From: a virus
Taxonomy: Duplodnaviria > Caudoviricetes
Reading direction: 5' to 3' (one strand)
IMG/VR virus record: IMGVR_UViG_3300011724_000025
Location: 1-64,000 of that record
DNA: 64,000 nt
The notes beneath the pieces were generated by a model that worked only from the letters and a program-made list of their open reading frames with translations, was not told the DNA's origin and made no database searches. Shown in pieces: positions 9,271 through 53,408 of the stretch; position 1 is the stretch's first letter; each line of letters opens with the position of its first letter. The position numbers were made by a program, and so were the translations under genes.

Positions 9271-9343
9271 CGCTTTTGCCTCCTATATTTAATTGTAAAA
9301 TTGTTGGGATTTTTGTTGATGTGTTTGGTTTAAAACAATGCTT

Positions 9344-44136: not shown

Positions 44137-44165
44137 TTGACAGTGTTTTTTCAACATGCTATAAT
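44137..44165 (+). promoter_or_regulatory. consensus sigma-A promoter, antisense to the operon
   Basis: TTGACA-17 bp-(TG n)TATAAT. Confidence 0.85.
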
Positions 44166-44303: not shown

Positions 44304-45098
44304 TTATGAGAGATATTTCATCACACCGGACTTTCTCTTGAGTAATAATTTTACATGCGTACTATCATGCAATTGAATTCCAAAATCCTCATCTATCTTA
44401 TTTGCTGTAAATGGGAGCACGTAATCCTCGAAATATATAATTTCGTATTTATCCGTCGGAACTTTGCTTAGCAATTTTTCCATAGTAATAGGAAAATAAT
44501 TCTCTCTTACTTCGCGCTCCCAGTTTGAAACATATCGATATTTCATGAGGAAATGTACTAAATTTCTATTCTCAGTTATACTTCCCCATATACTTTCGTA
44601 GTCTAATACTTGATTTGCATCTGCTTTTTGTATCACCTTTACCCAATCATTCACATCCGCCTTACGATTTACAGAAGAGCTAACACAAAAGTCTCGGATT
44701 GCGATGTATTGGAAGCCCGGATTAAATACACTATTCCAAAATTCACTAATGGCATACGGCATAGAGTATGAATAAACTTCGTGAATCACGCTAGATAAAT
44801 TTAGGAGTGATTTATTAGCATTAACAATACTTAAAGCTTCATTAAAATCGCTAGTAAACAATCCACTCGTTTTATCCTTACCTTTTGCTAATTTAATCAT
44901 TTCTTGACTAATGTCATATCCTATAAGACTTACGCCAGGTAGCCCTTTTGACATATGCTCAATTAACGTTCCGTCTGCGCAGCCAAAATCAACCAACTCT
45001 GTAATGTCATCAATCTTGTCCATAAAGAACAACTTGTCCTGAAAAGATTTCCCCATTCCTTCTATGTAAGTGTCATAATTTTTAATAGATTCACCCAT
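44304..45098 (-). CDS. class I SAM-dependent methyltransferase
   Basis: LVDFGCADG, GYDIS, LSSVIHE, IRD. Confidence 0.8.
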   Translation of the reverse strand: MGESIKNYDTYIEGMGKSFQDKLFFMDKIDDITELVDFGCADGTLIEHMSKGLPGVSLIGYDISQEMIKLAKGKDKTSGLFTSDFNEALSIVNANKSLLNLSSVIHEVYSYSMPYAISEFWNSVFNPGFQYIAIRDFCVSSSVNRKADVNDWVKVIQKADANQVLDYESIWGSITENRNLVHFLMKYRYVSNWEREVRENYFPITMEKLLSKVPTDKYEIIYFEDYVLPFTANKIDEDFGIQLHDSTHVKLLLKRKSGVMKYLS

Positions 45099-45099
45099 A

Positions 45100-47256
45100 T
45101 TACACCGCCCTCTTCTTTAGCAGCTGAGCAAAGCCATCTAAATCATCTCTCATATGTAAATAATTCTCTTTTTGATTCACTATGTATGTACTATTTTTCT
45201 TTGCAAACTCCGCAAACCAGCTCTGCGCAATGTCATCACATTCATGATCACATGCATATCCCACAATACCAAGTAGCGAAGAGAGGTTGTCCAAGTTAAT
45301 TAGCTTAGAGTCATAGTCTATATCCAATGTCCACTCATCAAGCATAGATAGATATAACTCTACATCTTCCTCTGTCTTTTCGGAGCCAGAATTTTCACGT
45401 ACAAAATCTAACGTCTGAATCGCTGCCTTGCAAATATCATCGTTTGTACTACCTACACATGCTTTTACATAGTCTGATTTTGAAAAGTTGTCCACATAAT
45501 CGGCAGATGTGGTTTTAATCTCTTTCTTTGATACTTTTGCTTTTTCAATATGTAAATAATCATTCATCAAATGCTCTAAATGATTTATCTTGCTGACAAC
45601 CACGGCTTTATCTTTAGTTGATTTTCCATTTAAGTTATCAAATGAAACGCCGTCGATCTCTTTGCTATGTAATGACTGATTAAATTCAGCCATAAATTCG
45701 ATGAACTTCTTGTCATCTAATCCGGTATCCATAAACCTGGCGTATAATCCAAAGTAAATAAAGGAATCCTTAGAATCAAACATATTGAAGACCTCTTCTG
45801 TTCCAACATTTGTGATTCTTCCAACCATATCCTCAAAATTGTCAAAACATTCAGTAGTGGCATTTTCTTTCATGTATTCGCATATATCCTCTTGCTTCTT
45901 TTTCCAATCATTTAAGAAGTTGACAGCCATTACGGATTCAACGACTACTCGATTCACAGTGCCATTATTTCCTTCTGACACTTTATACCCACCAAGATCT
46001 TTGAAGAATGGCATACCAGATATACTCTTGACCATTGAAGCAAACTCCTCTCCAAGCCTAGTAATACCCTTCTGAGAAGCCGTCATAGGCTTTCCCTCAT
46101 TGTATCGTGCGATGTGGTAAGCAATATCCTCACTAGAGCAGTTTAAATACTGTACGATTTCAAAGTTATACTCATTAAACTTGTCCTGCAATTCCTCTGG
46201 TAAATCTGAGAACCTTTTCCCACGTATATCAAATTCTCTTCTTTCGCTGATAGGGAATCTTTTATCGTCAAGTTTTGGGCTTCCATCTTCGTTTTTAATT
46301 TGAGCCTGATACTCGATATTCCATCTTCTAATATTTTTTGAAATCTTATATCCGCCCTTAACGAATGAATGTGCATTTGTGCAGCGTTGCTTTCCATCTA
46401 AGTCCCATATAATAGCAAGTCCATTCATTATCTGTTCTGCAAATACAAGGGCAGGAATTGGATTCCCCTGTAAAATGTCAGAAATCAGATTCCCCTTCAT
46501 GCCAGGACTCCATTGCTCTGATTCCCTCTGGAGTGGATGATCAAACCTGATAGTATAATTATCAATCTTTTTAATAATGGCCGCGATACTAAGCCTATCA
46601 GGCTTGCTTTTTTCCAGTGTCTGTGTAAATGTTTGCCCCATTTTCTTCTCCTCAATTTTTGAACATGCCGTTCTATCTCTAAATAATATTTGCGTGTTAC
46701 GAAAAGACTTTATTTGCCTACAATGATCTTCATATTGACCATCTGTTAAGTTTAGGTTGCATTTAATCTCCGAAATAGTAACATCATTCATCTTCATCTC
46801 AACTATTTGCCGTTGAACCGATGATAAACCATTGAGATATTTTTCTACTTTTTCATCGTTTGAAACACCAATTTTATCCAGTGTTTCTTTTTCAATGTCA
46901 TAGTCAGATGCCAACAGGTCGCCAATAGTGGCATTTTCATCTACACCAATGGGCGCATCAATAGAAACTGATAACCTGTCCGCCTTACGTTTTTCTCTAT
47001 TAAGTCCGGTCATCTCCGTTTTGAATTTTCTAGCTAGGCAACCCTTTAAATAAACTTCAAACAGAATCCCCTTTGATTCATCAAAAGTTTCTGTTGCCTT
47101 CCATAATTCTTCATTGGCTTTACTGTAAAAATCATCATGATCTTTTTCTGAAATTCCGCCAAACTTTATGAATAACGGATATGATATTTTTCTGAGTTTA
47201 GCCATGTTGTTTGATGCATACTCGTCCAATAATTGCTGTTTTTGCATAGAATCCAT
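45100..47256 (-). CDS. sigma-70-like factor fused to DUF262 (ParB/Srx-like) domain
   Basis: DDFYSKANEELWKA..TFDESKG..F..Y (region 2), LSSVQRQI...ISEI (region 4); HPLQR...W...LISDIL.GNPIP...LDGKQR...YNEGKPM (DUF262). Confidence 0.8.
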   Translation of the reverse strand: MDSMQKQQLLDEYASNNMAKLRKISYPLFIKFGGISEKDHDDFYSKANEELWKATETFDESKGILFEVYLKGCLARKFKTEMTGLNREKRKADRLSVSIDAPIGVDENATIGDLLASDYDIEKETLDKIGVSNDEKVEKYLNGLSSVQRQIVEMKMNDVTISEIKCNLNLTDGQYEDHCRQIKSFRNTQILFRDRTACSKIEEKKMGQTFTQTLEKSKPDRLSIAAIIKKIDNYTIRFDHPLQRESEQWSPGMKGNLISDILQGNPIPALVFAEQIMNGLAIIWDLDGKQRCTNAHSFVKGGYKISKNIRRWNIEYQAQIKNEDGSPKLDDKRFPISERREFDIRGKRFSDLPEELQDKFNEYNFEIVQYLNCSSEDIAYHIARYNEGKPMTASQKGITRLGEEFASMVKSISGMPFFKDLGGYKVSEGNNGTVNRVVVESVMAVNFLNDWKKKQEDICEYMKENATTECFDNFEDMVGRITNVGTEEVFNMFDSKDSFIYFGLYARFMDTGLDDKKFIEFMAEFNQSLHSKEIDGVSFDNLNGKSTKDKAVVVSKINHLEHLMNDYLHIEKAKVSKKEIKTTSADYVDNFSKSDYVKACVGSTNDDICKAAIQTLDFVRENSGSEKTEEDVELYLSMLDEWTLDIDYDSKLINLDNLSSLLGIVGYACDHECDDIAQSWFAEFAKKNSTYIVNQKENYLHMRDDLDGFAQLLKKRAV

Positions 47257-47299
47257 TTTGCCACCGCCTTATTTATACTAATGAGTCAACAGTGTTAAA

Positions 47300-47369
47300 C
47301 AACCGATGTGCGACTTGAACACACCCCAAGATAATCAAAATACCCTGTGCTACCTTACACCAATCAGTT
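47300..47369 (-). tRNA. phage tRNA-Gln(UUG)-like gene, degenerate
   Basis: Acceptor AACTGAT/ATCGGTT, D arm GTGT-AAGGTA-GCAC, anticodon arm GGGTA-TTTTGAT-TATCT, T arm GTGTG-TTCAAGT-CGCAC; no CCA. Confidence 0.7.
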
Positions 47370-47433
47370 ACAATATTTAATTCTCCATTCATTTATGGGA
47401 GACTATAGCAGAAACGCCGATACATGAAATTGC

Positions 47434-47625: not shown

Positions 47626-47676
47626 ATTATAAATCGAACATACGTTCTTTGTCAAGGTCTTTCGAATATATGTTCG
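47626..47676 (-). promoter_or_regulatory. sigma-A promoter with two LexA (Cheo) boxes
   Basis: -35 TTGACA (47650-47655), -10 TATAAT (47626-47631); CGAACATACGTTC (47635-47647) and CGAATATATGTTCG (47663-47676). Confidence 0.82.
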
Positions 47677-47688
47677 ATTATTGTCGTT

Positions 47689-48006
47689 TTATTCCCTTAA
47701 CAATATAGTACTTAATTTACCTCGCGGAATTATATTCCTTATATCTGGTTGCTTTTCAGTAAACACCCTCAATTGATTCACAAAATCATCATACACTCTT
47801 GCAATCGTTTCGGCTTCCATAATTATGTTTTCGCATTCATGTTTGCCTTTCTTTACAAACTCAGGAATCTCATCGCTTTCCAGGTCTTGAACTGCAACAA
47901 GAACTGTTTTAGATTTGTTGCCACGATTATATTTAAGTGCTTCTTCGATAGTCATTTCGATATATTGCATATTAGGCCACCTCTCCGAAATTAGCGTCAT
48001 ATACAC
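47689..48006 (-). CDS. hypothetical protein downstream of mazF-like gene
   Basis: ORF with SD GGAGGTG before MQYIE. Confidence 0.6.
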   Translation of the reverse strand: MYMTLISERWPNMQYIEMTIEEALKYNRGNKSKTVLVAVQDLESDEIPEFVKKGKHECENIIMEAETIARVYDDFVNQLRVFTEKQPDIRNIIPRGKLSTILLRE

Positions 48007-48334
48007 GCCTTATTTCTTTTTTCTCTTTTACATCGGAAATATAACCGAGGTATTTAATGATTCTCTTTTCTGATATTTGTCTCATGCATTCTCCTAACAC
48101 CATTGAATCCTCAACCAGCCCCTTTTCGTTTCCTTTCTCAATGAGAGTATGCGTTGGCTGATTGAGATTCTTAACTTGACTTGTTAACGGCATTACAATG
48201 GTTGTACTGCTATAGAAATTTCCCACGTCATTTTGTATAATTACTGCCGGTCTTATACCGCCCTGCTCTGAGTCAATTACATTTAATCCGAAATCTACAA
48301 GTACAATATCATATCTTTTTAAATCCTGTGTCAT
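47972..48334 (-). CDS. PemK/MazF (EndoA-like) endoribonuclease
   Basis: SEQGGIRPAVIIQNDVGN..S.TTIV.PLTS; start 48334 or 48346 after GAAAGGAGG. Confidence 0.88.
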   Translation of the reverse strand: MTQDLKRYDIVLVDFGLNVIDSEQGGIRPAVIIQNDVGNFYSSTTIVMPLTSQVKNLNQPTHTLIEKGNEKGLVEDSMVLGECMRQISEKRIIKYLGYISDVKEKKEIRRVYDANFGEVA

Positions 48335-48386
48335 AATTTTACGCATCCTCCTTTCTTCAACACTTGCCAATCTCTTTATACTCAAC

Positions 48387-48479
48387 ATTATATACTACGC
48401 TTTATATAAAGTCAAGTATATATAGCAAATATATTTTATATTTATATTTCTTTCTATATATGCTATACTATATATAAAG
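48387..48479. promoter_or_regulatory. divergent repressor/lytic promoter region with operators
   Basis: Minus-strand TTGACT (48410-48415)-17 bp-TATAAT (48387-48392); palindromes CTTTATATAAAG (48400-48411) and CTATATATAAAG (48468-48479). Confidence 0.75.
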
Positions 48480-49220: not shown

Positions 49221-50444
49221 TCAATCTTTCATATTTGTTTTCTTTTTTGCTGCTTTATAACTATTACGATATTCATCACGCAGTAGAGCATATGAGATTA
49301 AATTTTCTATAAGTGTGACAATTTCTTGGTCGTCCAAATGCCAAAGCCTATCATGTTCAAGCTTTCCGAGAAAAAATCTTTTCCCATCTACAATTTGTGG
49401 ATATCTTGCGTAGACGAGTTTTCGAAGCTCGCTAACTTTACCACTCCCTAAATTACCAATTCCGATACGACCATGATGATAGAAGTAACATGAGTTACCG
49501 ATTACCGTTAAGTTATCATCTAGAATAAGTTGCAAAGAATGATGTGTATCTTTTTCATTGTCAATTGCAACATTAAGTGATGTCTTTTGAATCTCTTGTT
49601 TCGCTTCTGTAACATATGTAGATATGTTTATAGAAACAAATTCTGTACTTCCATTTACATCAATTAAAAATGAACGATATGGCCCTGAAAATATTCCTCC
49701 GCCGGCATTGCCATAAGATAAAAATCTTAAGCCATAATCTTCAAGCAAATTAAAAAGCTTATATTTATTCTTTGGGAATTTATAGCTTACATCCAGCAAG
49801 CATTCCCAAAGGTTCATTATGGGGATTGCTTTAGATAAGGTAGTATTCGTCCCAATTTCATAGTCTTGATAATCACATAAGTTTTTCTCCAAGTCCTCAA
49901 ATGGAATTCTAATTGGTGTTTCATCCTCTTCAATTTTAGAATAAATCCCTTTAATCATATCTTGATAATTCGGAAGTGCTTTTATATCAATATACTGATT
50001 CGATTCTGAGTCGAATTTACAACAAATAGTGTCTTCTCCATCTGTTAGCATAGCATATTCACATTCTAGAAAATCCGCATAATCTAAAACTTGATTTACT
50101 GCTTTTTCTCCTAGTAAAACACCTTTGGCTTTACATTCCACCACGGCTATTGGCGACGAAGTATTATCTATATCATTAAGTTTATGGATAACAATATCAG
50201 CTCGTCTTTTAGAGTTAGCTACATAGTGAGAAATGTGTTCTTCTACTGTAATCATGCTGCGTGGCGTCTGTAGCTCGTCAATTAGATATGAAATAGTCTT
50301 TTGTCTTATAGTTTCTTCTGGCGTGATAAATATTAACTTTTCTCTAATAGAATCCAAATAGCATTCTTTACCACAACGTTTATATATCTTCGGTAGGGGT
50401 TGATTCTCCAAATTTATTTTCATAATCTCACCTCTAAAAGCCAT
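49221..50444 (-). CDS. HsdR N-terminal (HSDR_N_2)-type PD-(D/E)xK nuclease protein
   Basis: TPEETIRQ, RADIVI, VVECK, QVLDY, LTDG. Confidence 0.75.
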   Translation of the reverse strand: MAFRGEIMKINLENQPLPKIYKRCGKECYLDSIREKLIFITPEETIRQKTISYLIDELQTPRSMITVEEHISHYVANSKRRADIVIHKLNDIDNTSSPIAVVECKAKGVLLGEKAVNQVLDYADFLECEYAMLTDGEDTICCKFDSESNQYIDIKALPNYQDMIKGIYSKIEEDETPIRIPFEDLEKNLCDYQDYEIGTNTTLSKAIPIMNLWECLLDVSYKFPKNKYKLFNLLEDYGLRFLSYGNAGGGIFSGPYRSFLIDVNGSTEFVSINISTYVTEAKQEIQKTSLNVAIDNEKDTHHSLQLILDDNLTVIGNSCYFYHHGRIGIGNLGSGKVSELRKLVYARYPQIVDGKRFFLGKLEHDRLWHLDDQEIVTLIENLISYALLRDEYRNSYKAAKKKTNMKD

Positions 50445-52883: not shown

Positions 52884-53408
52884 TCATTTCAAGCTTTCTA
52901 ACATGTTCTTTACTCTATCAATTTCTTCTTTACTATGTGGCGTTCCTCCACTATTAAATTCAACATACCACTGTAATACTTCTTTTTTAGTTTTGAGATT
53001 ATTTACATTAAACAACAAATCAACATCAATTGATAATTTATCTTCAAAGTCATGTAAATAATTTCCAAATACTTTTATTTCATTATTCATAAACTTTATA
53101 ACAGCAGTGAGTCTTTGTAGTCCATCAACACATACAAAATCATCATACTCGTATATTCCATCGCCTCGCCAACTTGGTTTATTAAAATAAATAACCCTAG
53201 CTGATTTTCCACCTCTTAGCAAATATTCAATATAGGCAATTTGTTGGTTCTCTGTCCAAACATGTCCTCTTTGGAAATCTGGATCTAATTGCAAGCCATA
53301 ATATTCATCTTCTTGCCATTCTTTTATTCGTTCACTAACATAATATAATGGCATATTCACCTGATAACTTCCTACACTGGTAAGTTGCGGAATATCTTTA
53401 AATTTCAT
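52884..53408 (-). CDS. stand-alone DUF262 (ParB-like) protein
   Basis: LDPDFQRGHVW, VDGLQRLTA, FNSGGT. Confidence 0.8.
   Translation of the reverse strand: MKFKDIPQLTSVGSYQVNMPLYYVSERIKEWQEDEYYGLQLDPDFQRGHVWTENQQIAYIEYLLRGGKSARVIYFNKPSWRGDGIYEYDDFVCVDGLQRLTAVIKFMNNEIKVFGNYLHDFEDKLSIDVDLLFNVNNLKTKKEVLQWYVEFNSGGTPHSKEEIDRVKNMLESLK

Follow-up and report, generated by a model that had tools for sequence, protein, structure and literature searches.

Does one phage gene encode both a sigma factor joined to a ParB-like protein and, from a second start codon in the same reading frame, the ParB-like protein on its own? The question is raised by a minus-strand open reading frame (ORF) in a virus (Duplodnaviria; Caudoviricetes) held in IMG/VR as IMGVR_UViG_3300011724_000025, positions 1 to 64,000 of which constitute the 64-kb stretch analysed here and referred to as the window. 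An original prediction, made from the DNA letters, had described about 200 aa of sigma-70 sequence in frame with a DUF262 domain, had singled out GAGGAG-AAGAAA-ATG at the junction (ATG at 46641, Met206) as a strong in-frame Shine–Dalgarno (SD) sequence and start, and had proposed that a fusion and a free DUF262 protein both arise from the gene, and that the ParB-like domain could gate or sequester the phage sigma as a lytic-commitment switch. We report that the ORF encodes a compact sigma-70-type factor, a linker, a core resembling NsnA and BrxU, and a helical C-terminal module. Comparison among relatives further shows nucleotide-level selection acting on the internal SD and start, and makes it likely that the free partner protein is produced besides the fusion. 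The features on which these statements rest are as follows; labels of the form L095 denote related loci found in this analysis.

45100..47256, minus strand: sigma-DUF262 fusion ORF, 718 aa, stop codon counted (ORF call; AlphaFold2 model with three modules)
46672..47256, minus strand: sigma-70-family module, residues 1-195, with regions 2 and 3.2 and a putative region 4, and without region 1.1 or 3.0/3.1 (Pfam, NCBIfam, PHROG, PDB profile, Foldseek, stand-alone homologues)
46648..46653, minus strand: internal SD GAGGAG, codons Glu203-Glu204, in the disordered linker (sequence and comparative analysis)
46639..46641, minus strand: internal in-frame start ATG, Met206 (sequence and comparative analysis)
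45541..46614, minus strand: ParB-DUF262 NTPase-like plus helical (ParBDB-like) domain, residues 215-572 (GmrSD_N, NsnA, phrog_2598, BrxU fold)
45103..45489, minus strand: C-terminal helical module, residues 590-718, with no recognisable fold (AlphaFold2 model, fold searches)
45100..46641, minus strand: nested ORF, predicted free partner, 513 aa, Met206 to stop (collinear with the split-form partner genes of L095 and L096)

Conservation of an internal ribosome-binding site and start

The junction motif could be read directly: the spacer AAGAAA joins GAGGAG (46653-46648) to the ATG (46641-46639). The energy of its duplex with the anti-SD sequence, -8.6 kcal/mol, matches that of neighbouring starts (-8.6 and -8.7) and compares with -7.9 for the gene's own start, and the partner genes of two-gene relatives share this SD design (-8.5 to -10.8). 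Equivalents in the family were sought by scanning the 17 codons upstream of the invariant Thr213 for in-frame ATG, GTG or TTG codons and scoring the anti-SD duplex in 51 sequences below 80% identity, the best candidate being chosen in an identical manner in control windows from the same genes. An SD plus start with a duplex free energy (dG) of -8 kcal/mol or lower was present in 48/51 sequences as against 5% of control windows, and at -10 or lower in 31/51 as against 2%; 30 of the 33 internal ATGs with dG at or below -10 fall at reference positions 204-208. The check for a conserved internal SD that had accompanied the original prediction thus came out in its favour.

The hexapeptides encoded before the start are all distinct (49/49; for example KIEEKK, VREGKL and QEVVTN), while the nucleotides follow a pattern in which GAG is preceded by a codon with a final G and followed by one with an initial G. 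In 32/49 sequences the distance from GGAGG to the start is 8 or 11 nt, and the sole peaks of information content are those over GGAGGA (-13 to -8) and over the ATG. Glutamate codons show the same preference, the ratio of GAG to GAA being 64:26 in the five codons before the start and 917:1764 elsewhere (odds ratio 4.7, p 4e-12). An in-frame SD and start are therefore conserved beyond coding need, which is one mark of a nested gene. Since SD and start are kept while the upstream hexapeptides all differ, and since GAG is preferred over GAA, two products are strongly implied. The proposed production of a fusion and a free DUF262 protein from a single gene gains strong comparative support from the conserved SD and start and from split forms that encode the short product, although the two polypeptides are as yet predicted from sequence.

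Fused and two-gene forms of the family

Scans of genome and viral collections gave 90 related loci, with the junction frame open in nearly all. The open fusion frame occurs in about 50 non-redundant lineages of large Lachnospiraceae phages or prophages, at 33-98% identity, IMG/VR viral contigs of 70-180 kb among them. A 176-kb human-faecal phage gives a one-piece match to residues 20-718 at 36% identity, and full-length relatives at 57-98% identity carry the names Lacrimispora, [Clostridium] symbiosum or 'Bacteriophage sp.', some being found on hundreds of contigs. The nearest genome is that of Lacrimispora sp. HJ-01 (98%), and a 98%-identical fusion is present in a complete genome (L002). In the ESM Atlas, clusters of 720-729 aa that combine GmrSD_N with Sigma70_r2 bear viral or Bacillota labels and no more than generic automatic names.

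In the wider family, the two-gene form, comprising a sigma gene of ~185-195 aa and then a DUF262 gene of ~455-540 aa, is the commoner state: among the best 150 sigma-part clusters at 50% identity in an exhaustive search, 112 have stand-alone length and 33 fused length. A search limited to short proteins returned 412 stand-alone sigma homologues of about 185-194 aa, and each of the three that were looked up is directly followed by a separate 455-480-aa gene. Loci with the same synteny and an adjacent or overlapping DUF262 gene are L085, L062, L095, L096-98 and L099-101. In L085 a sigma ORF of 186 aa and a DUF262 ORF of 537 aa share an ATGA overlap; in L062 an in-frame stop is followed by a spacer of ~75 nt and then GGAGG and ATG; sigma and partner genes are separated by 18 nt in L095 and 40 nt in L096, and overlap by 7 nt in L099. 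The upstream synteny of L095, L096 and L099 is that of the window (XRE repressor, MazF, small ORFs), and the partners of L095 (33% identity over window residues 215-709) and L096 (31% over 249-717) include the C-terminal module. Split-form sigma ORFs stop just past the motif that reads ...ILF in the window, so that the fusion linker is a former intergenic region that is now read through; the disorder of the linker fits this origin. Homologues are thus both fused and split, the latter in the majority, and the possibility raised with the original prediction, that they might always be two genes and the fusion a lost stop or an error, does not agree with the open frame in about 50 lineages.

A quick maximum-likelihood tree of the sigma part, whose branch details are provisional, interleaves fused and split states, with five changes by parsimony and at least three forced by well-supported branches; the sigma part of the window groups with split forms. 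Free-standing DUF262 genes of Bacillus and Enterocloster phages were considered as split forms and rejected, there being no sigma gene among their annotated neighbours; for this reason we regard them as more distant relatives, uninformative here. Other members of the family have probably decayed with their prophages: L037:8082-9386 is a chromosomal remnant of the partner gene without a sigma part, and at L048:7977-8570 the partner gene is broken into two ORFs beside a tRNA gene. The split-form operons hold further nucleic-acid-related genes, namely a 275-aa ParB-N-like ORF after the pair in L085 (L085:9601-10428) and a Thg1-like gene a few genes after it in L096, L099 and L100 (L096:7645-8505; L099:8757-9662).

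The sigma, ParB-like and C-terminal modules

An AlphaFold2 model built on a 50-homologue alignment shows three folded modules (mean predicted local distance difference test score 83.9), with low-confidence segments at 197-209 and 573-590 between them; the linker between sigma and partner is disordered. A Foldseek search with this model gave BrxU (7p9k, a GmrSD-family enzyme) as best match, then many sigma factors, with SspE lower down.

In the sigma part, phrog_351 ('RNA polymerase sigma factor') matches residues 39-173 at E 3.9e-11, and a profile of the 50 homologues, searched against all PDB sequences, retrieves housekeeping and alternative sigma factors (SigA/RpoD; best E 1.8e-8). The profile alignment runs from region 2.1 to a region 3.2 motif (SLDxPIGEE..LGD) and on to region 4, skipping region 3.0/3.1; it reaches positions 162-185 for RpoD, RpoS and FliA, and the model has helices at 146-191. 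As a single sequence the window protein matches Pfam Sigma70_r2 at residues 36-83 (E 1.6e-4), with weak matches to sigma-70 regions 2, 3 and 4 within its first 180 residues; NCBIfam sigma matches are likewise weak, TIGR02937 over 38-179 (E 2.7e-4) lying under its cut-off. PF04542 is already annotated on many homologues (precomputed). Membership of the sigma-70 region 2 family is given by the family profile, by phrog_351 and by PF04542 on the homologues, and a single minus-strand ORF (45100..47256) bears both sigma and DUF262 sequence, as originally predicted, with profile and Pfam support.

The partner belongs to DUF262/GmrSD_N (PF03235; residues 232-373, 36.6 bits as against a cut-off of 33.2). 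The PADLOC model of NsnA, the ParB-DUF262 sensor of Menshen, matches residues 196-492 (E 9.7e-15), and the uncharacterised phrog_2598 matches residues 216-467. The motifs QR..W (243-249) and DGKQR (287-291) are present; Q243, R244, W249, D287, G288 and Q290 are invariant among 50 fused-family sequences and R291 is found in at least 90% of them. QR..W and DGxQR form the nucleotide centre of ParB-DUF262 domains, and in SspE and its relatives DNA is bound by the accompanying helical domain (PMC12065111). A Pfam scan of the fusion protein gave no match to a ParB N-terminal or helix-turn-helix domain, and no DUF1524 His-Me/HNH nuclease was matched by Pfam in the fusion protein or in 28 C-terminal modules. 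Since there is no DUF1524 nuclease and no NsnB or NsnC neighbour, the partner is neither a GmrSD-type restriction enzyme nor part of a Menshen system: the NsnB ABC-ATPase/NsnC effector pair is missing from all 53 loci, and the NsnA match is at the level of the domain.

The C-terminal module is an all-helical bundle without a nuclease match, and is optional in the family, being missing from fused forms of ~570-630 aa. Its fold was matched neither by Pfam (28 modules) nor by Foldseek at E <= 0.001; in VIA-align the best score (Z 5.3, to designed helical repeats) is at noise level for helical bundles, and the matches to a few chains resembling sigma region 2 (Z 3.6-4.3) fall short of significance. 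The same prophage carries a second, short GmrSD_N/DUF262 ORF of 174 aa (window 52884-53408, minus strand; Pfam E 1.1e-10).

Promoter, LexA boxes and leader

Upstream of the gene lie the following features.

47663..47676, minus strand: LexA (Cheo) box 1, CGAACATATATTCG, with one mismatch to GAAC-N4-GTTC, just upstream of the -35 (read directly)
47626..47655, minus strand: sigma-A promoter TTGACA-18-TATAAT, for tRNA-Gln, the sigma-DUF262 gene and the methyltransferase gene (12/12 consensus match)
47635..47648, minus strand: LexA box 2, AGAACGTATGTTCG, between -35 and -10 in the spacer (sequence; relatives)
47299..47370, minus strand: tRNA-Gln(UUG) in the leader (ARAGORN; Rfam tRNA 42 bits as against a gathering score of 29)

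AGAACGTATGTTCG is the only perfect GAAC-N4-GTTC in the 64-kb window. Such a Cheo box (CGAAC-N4-GTTCG) overlapping the promoter constitutes a predicted LexA operator, and LexA boxes lie up to 500 nt upstream in 26/50 non-redundant relatives, as against a background of 0.0099 per 500 nt in the same loci. A second phage group (type B) has a near-invariant order of box, TTGACA, box, TATAAT. With a LexA-boxed sigma-A promoter and a context of phage genes, the sigma-DUF262 gene looks like the first SOS-derepressed lytic gene, or lytic master regulator. For the suggested lytic-commitment switch, it is the conserved LexA operators in the promoter that lend support.

Genes for tRNA-Gln, tRNA-Met and other tRNAs lie upstream of the sigma gene in many relatives (L049-L051, L073, L083, L095, L096, L099). 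A perfect extended -10 sigma-A promoter (TTGACA-17-TATAAT with TG) at window 44137-44165 on the plus strand is directed antisense into the methyltransferase/sigma-DUF262 operon; the sigma factor SigN of plasmid pBS32 is also restrained by antisense transcripts (PMC10601692).

Genomic neighbourhood

Immediately downstream of the fusion gene is a co-transcribed gene.

44304..45098, minus strand: class I S-adenosylmethionine-dependent methyltransferase, starting 1 nt past the fusion stop codon, co-transcribed (5/53 loci only)

The neighbours of the family are phage genes, virion proteins among them (PHROGs); Pfam found almost nothing in the conserved neighbour clusters. In the group of phages like that of the window, a tyrosine recombinase, an XRE repressor, MazF and small ORFs precede the fusion gene, and in the second group virion-protein genes are divergent from it. 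A gene for a MazF/PemK toxin without an upstream antitoxin, followed by an overlapping ORF of ~100 aa, occupies window 47689-48388 (minus strand); upstream of the sigma gene MazF is kept in 16/53 loci and the small ORF in 11/53. Conservation of this pair suggests that the small ORF could be a downstream-encoded antitoxin. Between recombinase and XRE repressor, a 407-aa HSDR_N_2 protein (type I R-subunit N-terminal nuclease-like domain; window 49221-50444, minus strand) is encoded without a helicase or methylase part.

The palindrome TRAAA-N6-TTTYA is over-represented, with 24 perfect sites between window positions 9331 and 63875 (e.g. 34097, 38819, 51752, 57182) as against 2.7 expected. Most precede the SD of the following minus-strand gene by 0-10 nt, a position that suggests an mRNA-level element or one adjacent to ribosome-binding sites rather than recombination sites. 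It is just as enriched in window-like loci with protein identities as low as 35% (0.39 expected per 10 kb, 3.0 observed), and it is nearly absent from the second phage group. The sites were considered as promoters or as binding sites of the fusion protein and rejected as either, lying beside ribosome-binding sites and tracking the phage group rather than the protein or its C-terminal module.

Discussion

Our working proposal is that an SOS-induced phage gene yields a sigma-partner fusion together with free partner, and that its sigma part redirects RNA polymerase; taken as a whole we consider this somewhat more probable than its negation. The gene would be an early regulator in a Lacrimispora prophage, a temperate Lachnospiraceae phage of large size, uniting in one ORF two proteins that in related phages are usually encoded by adjacent, translationally coupled genes. 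Host sigma-A RNA polymerase would transcribe it from the LexA-operator promoter, and because that promoter bears LexA operators DNA damage should switch the gene on. With no stop codon between sigma and partner, initiation at Met1 would give the fusion; since the linker still carries the partner's SD and start codon, ribosomes would be expected to start also at Met206 and give the free 513-aa partner. The phage sigma may then redirect RNA polymerase to phage lytic promoters, while the partner might tether or gate it through nucleoside triphosphate (NTP) and/or DNA binding, and the free partner might set the stoichiometry, for example through dimers of the partner that bear a single sigma. That the two genes stay adjacent and translationally coupled, and have fused repeatedly, argues for joint action of sigma and partner, probably in contact.

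Several observations weigh against this proposal. A strong internal start is lacking in 3/51 lineages (none in L026, weak ones in L042 and L083), and with repeated changes between fused and split states part of the SD conservation may be inherited from recent fusions. The split-form loci examined have no LexA boxes near the sigma gene. The Sigma70_r2 score of 21.8 is under the gathering score of 24 for the single sequence, as is the match to region 4 (Pfam r4_2, E 0.14), and the sigma part reads YLKGC where housekeeping sigmas have YATWW, so that the region 2.3 Trp pair is absent; given these two properties, promoter melting and RNA polymerase binding by the sigma part are assumed. No sigma-dependent promoter motif was found by eye in the upstream regions. 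Finally, the predicted template modelling score of the AlphaFold2 model is 0.54, and its interface between sigma and partner is not confident.

What the partner does to the sigma factor admits two readings, which fit equally well. The first, which we put forward tentatively, is that the ParB-like partner is an anti-sigma factor responsive to NTP or DNA, acting in cis within the fusion and in trans as the free protein, so that an SOS-induced and potentially toxic sigma is kept inactive until a signal arrives and a threshold is set for lytic commitment. A sigma gene followed by a co-translated partner is the classic layout of sigma/anti-sigma operons; the partner's own ribosome-binding site would allow its production in excess; and fused proteins of the family vary little or not at all in their NTP-binding motifs QR..W and DGxQR. 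SigN of pBS32, controlled by LexA only, is intrinsically toxic and needs threshold control (PMC10601692). This reading is weakened by the lack of a confident docking of sigma on partner in the model and by the requirement of a covalently tethered inhibitor for a release mechanism, none being evident; nor is any anti-sigma factor of ParB fold known.

The second reading, which is possible to a like degree, has the partner binding phage DNA, whether as a site- or modification-specific binder or as an NTP-dependent clamp, and delivering or retaining the sigma-RNA polymerase holoenzyme there as a co-activator. Homologous DUF262 and helical modules bind or sense DNA in SspE, GmrSD, DndB and NsnA (PMC12065111), BrxU and SspE are the closest solved folds, and fusion would hold sigma and partner at 1:1 in one molecule. 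A methyltransferase is coupled downstream in the window phage and in four other lineages, although that amounts to a small minority of loci; and no binding site for the protein was found, the abundant palindromes following the type of phage instead. In an extension of this idea that we regard as doubtful, the sigma and a ParB-fold, nucleotide-dependent DNA binder, whether encoded as a coupled gene pair or as a fusion accompanied by free partner, would act as one unit in which loading of the partner onto phage DNA, or its sensing of that DNA, governs how the hijacked RNA polymerase uses promoters, a ParB-based counterpart of the coupling of sigma to a sliding clamp in phage T4 and, at the same time, an SOS commitment switch.

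It is improbable, we believe, that the fusion is the single product and that GGAGG and Met206 are relics of a recent loss of a stop codon, or a site of translational pausing. The repeated interconversion of fused and split states means that some fusions may be young, but deep clades composed entirely of fused forms retain the motif (e.g. one of 13 rows with support of 98 and branch lengths of 0.4-1 substitutions/site). GGAGG and its spacing persist where all 49 upstream hexapeptides differ, GAG is preferred despite the GAA bias of the same genes, and the Met is kept as well, although translational pausing would not call for it.

We think it very unlikely that the gene serves defence, with DUF262 as an anti-phage sensor of the Menshen NsnA or GmrSD type and the sigma as the output that turns on abortive-infection genes, such as the nearby MazF, upon entry of foreign modified DNA. 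The PADLOC match to NsnA, the role of DUF262 proteins as sensors in several defence systems and the proximity of MazF and the HSDR_N protein would suit such a function. The loci lack NsnB/NsnC partners and a DUF1524 nuclease, however, and the gene is a core gene conserved across two phage groups; its promoter is predicted to be LexA-repressed, and it either heads the lytic genes or neighbours virion genes instead of occupying the position of a lysogen-expressed moron. That a sequencing or assembly error erased a stop codon between two genes can be dismissed, for although two-gene forms are commoner in the wider family, the same open frame recurs in about 50 lineages from independent isolates, metagenome-assembled genomes and viral contigs, including the 98%-identical complete genome, and fused clusters occur on hundreds of contigs.

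Many regulators of sigma factors have been described, none to our knowledge with a ParB/DUF262 fold, and DUF262 proteins are known to us almost only as sensors in anti-phage defence. The present family, large and uncharacterised (611 clusters at 50% identity match the sigma part at E <= 0.001; hundreds of contigs from human and animal guts carry a member), links the two through adjacency and repeated fusion, and is predicted to stand where host DNA damage turns into prophage induction in abundant gut Lachnospiraceae. Should the partner tether or gate the sigma, the specificity of RNA polymerase would be controlled in a new way and ParB-fold NTPases would gain a new role in the cell; should the two form a joint unit, that unit would be the commitment switch of widespread gut Lachnospiraceae prophages, many of which are without an adjacent CI-type repressor. 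In the nested start, too, nature offers a clear case of an internal ribosome-binding site under selection.

Comparison with known systems

In T4 late transcription the sigma factor gp55 works with the co-activator gp33 and the gp45 sliding clamp, and KorB is a ParB-family clamp, dependent on cytidine triphosphate, that regulates transcription. These are analogies only: in them a nucleotide-dependent protein loaded on DNA is functionally coupled to a phage sigma, or to RNA polymerase, and so ties transcription to the state of the DNA. The window protein has no homology to gp45 or gp33, and clamp behaviour of DUF262 is conjectural. Sigma factors of the ECF41 and ECF42 groups carry a fused C-terminal regulatory extension (SnoaL-like, TPR) that modulates them in cis. 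They resemble the window protein in the covalent joining of a sigma to a regulatory domain; they differ from it in the domains that are fused, in having no known nested second product, and in not being known as phage-borne or LexA-controlled.

For the SOS control of the sigma-DUF262 gene, the closest described parallel would appear to be SigN (ZpdN) of the Bacillus subtilis plasmid or prophage-like element pBS32, also a sigma factor of a mobile element with a LexA-repressed promoter, a logic that the window shares in its LexA-boxed sigma-A promoter. SigN activates pBS32's own genes after DNA damage, is intrinsically toxic and has no known anti-sigma factor (PMC10601692). A tblastn search against plasmids detected no sequence match between SigN and the window sigma, and whereas SigN is without a known protein partner, in the window family a ParB-like partner is always adjacent or fused. 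Menshen NsnA, together with GmrSD, BrxU, SspE and DndB, has the same ParB-DUF262 domain (QR..W, DGxQR) and helical domain (the ParBDB of PMC12065111). NsnA proteins can bear extra N-terminal DNA-related domains, of which the sigma-type ones listed are only region 1.1-like (PMC12065111); the window protein, unlike this group, has an N-terminal sigma region 2-4 module and lies in a phage lytic-regulation operon, with no NsnB/NsnC and no DUF1524.

Literature searches did not find a pairing of sigma with DUF262 or ParB described. In Firmicute-phage endolysins a single gene is reported to give two polypeptides through an in-frame internal start in a linker (PMC9430671). As in the window, SD and start lie in the inter-domain linker and the stop is shared, so that a full-length protein and a free C-terminal module result; the endolysins so described (PMC9430671) are lysis enzymes whose free module binds the cell wall, whereas in the window a sigma factor stands upstream, the nested product is ParB-like and the two products are predicted. 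The pairing of a sigma factor with a ParB-like protein appears to be newly described here, and nested in-frame products are already known from these endolysins of Firmicute phages.

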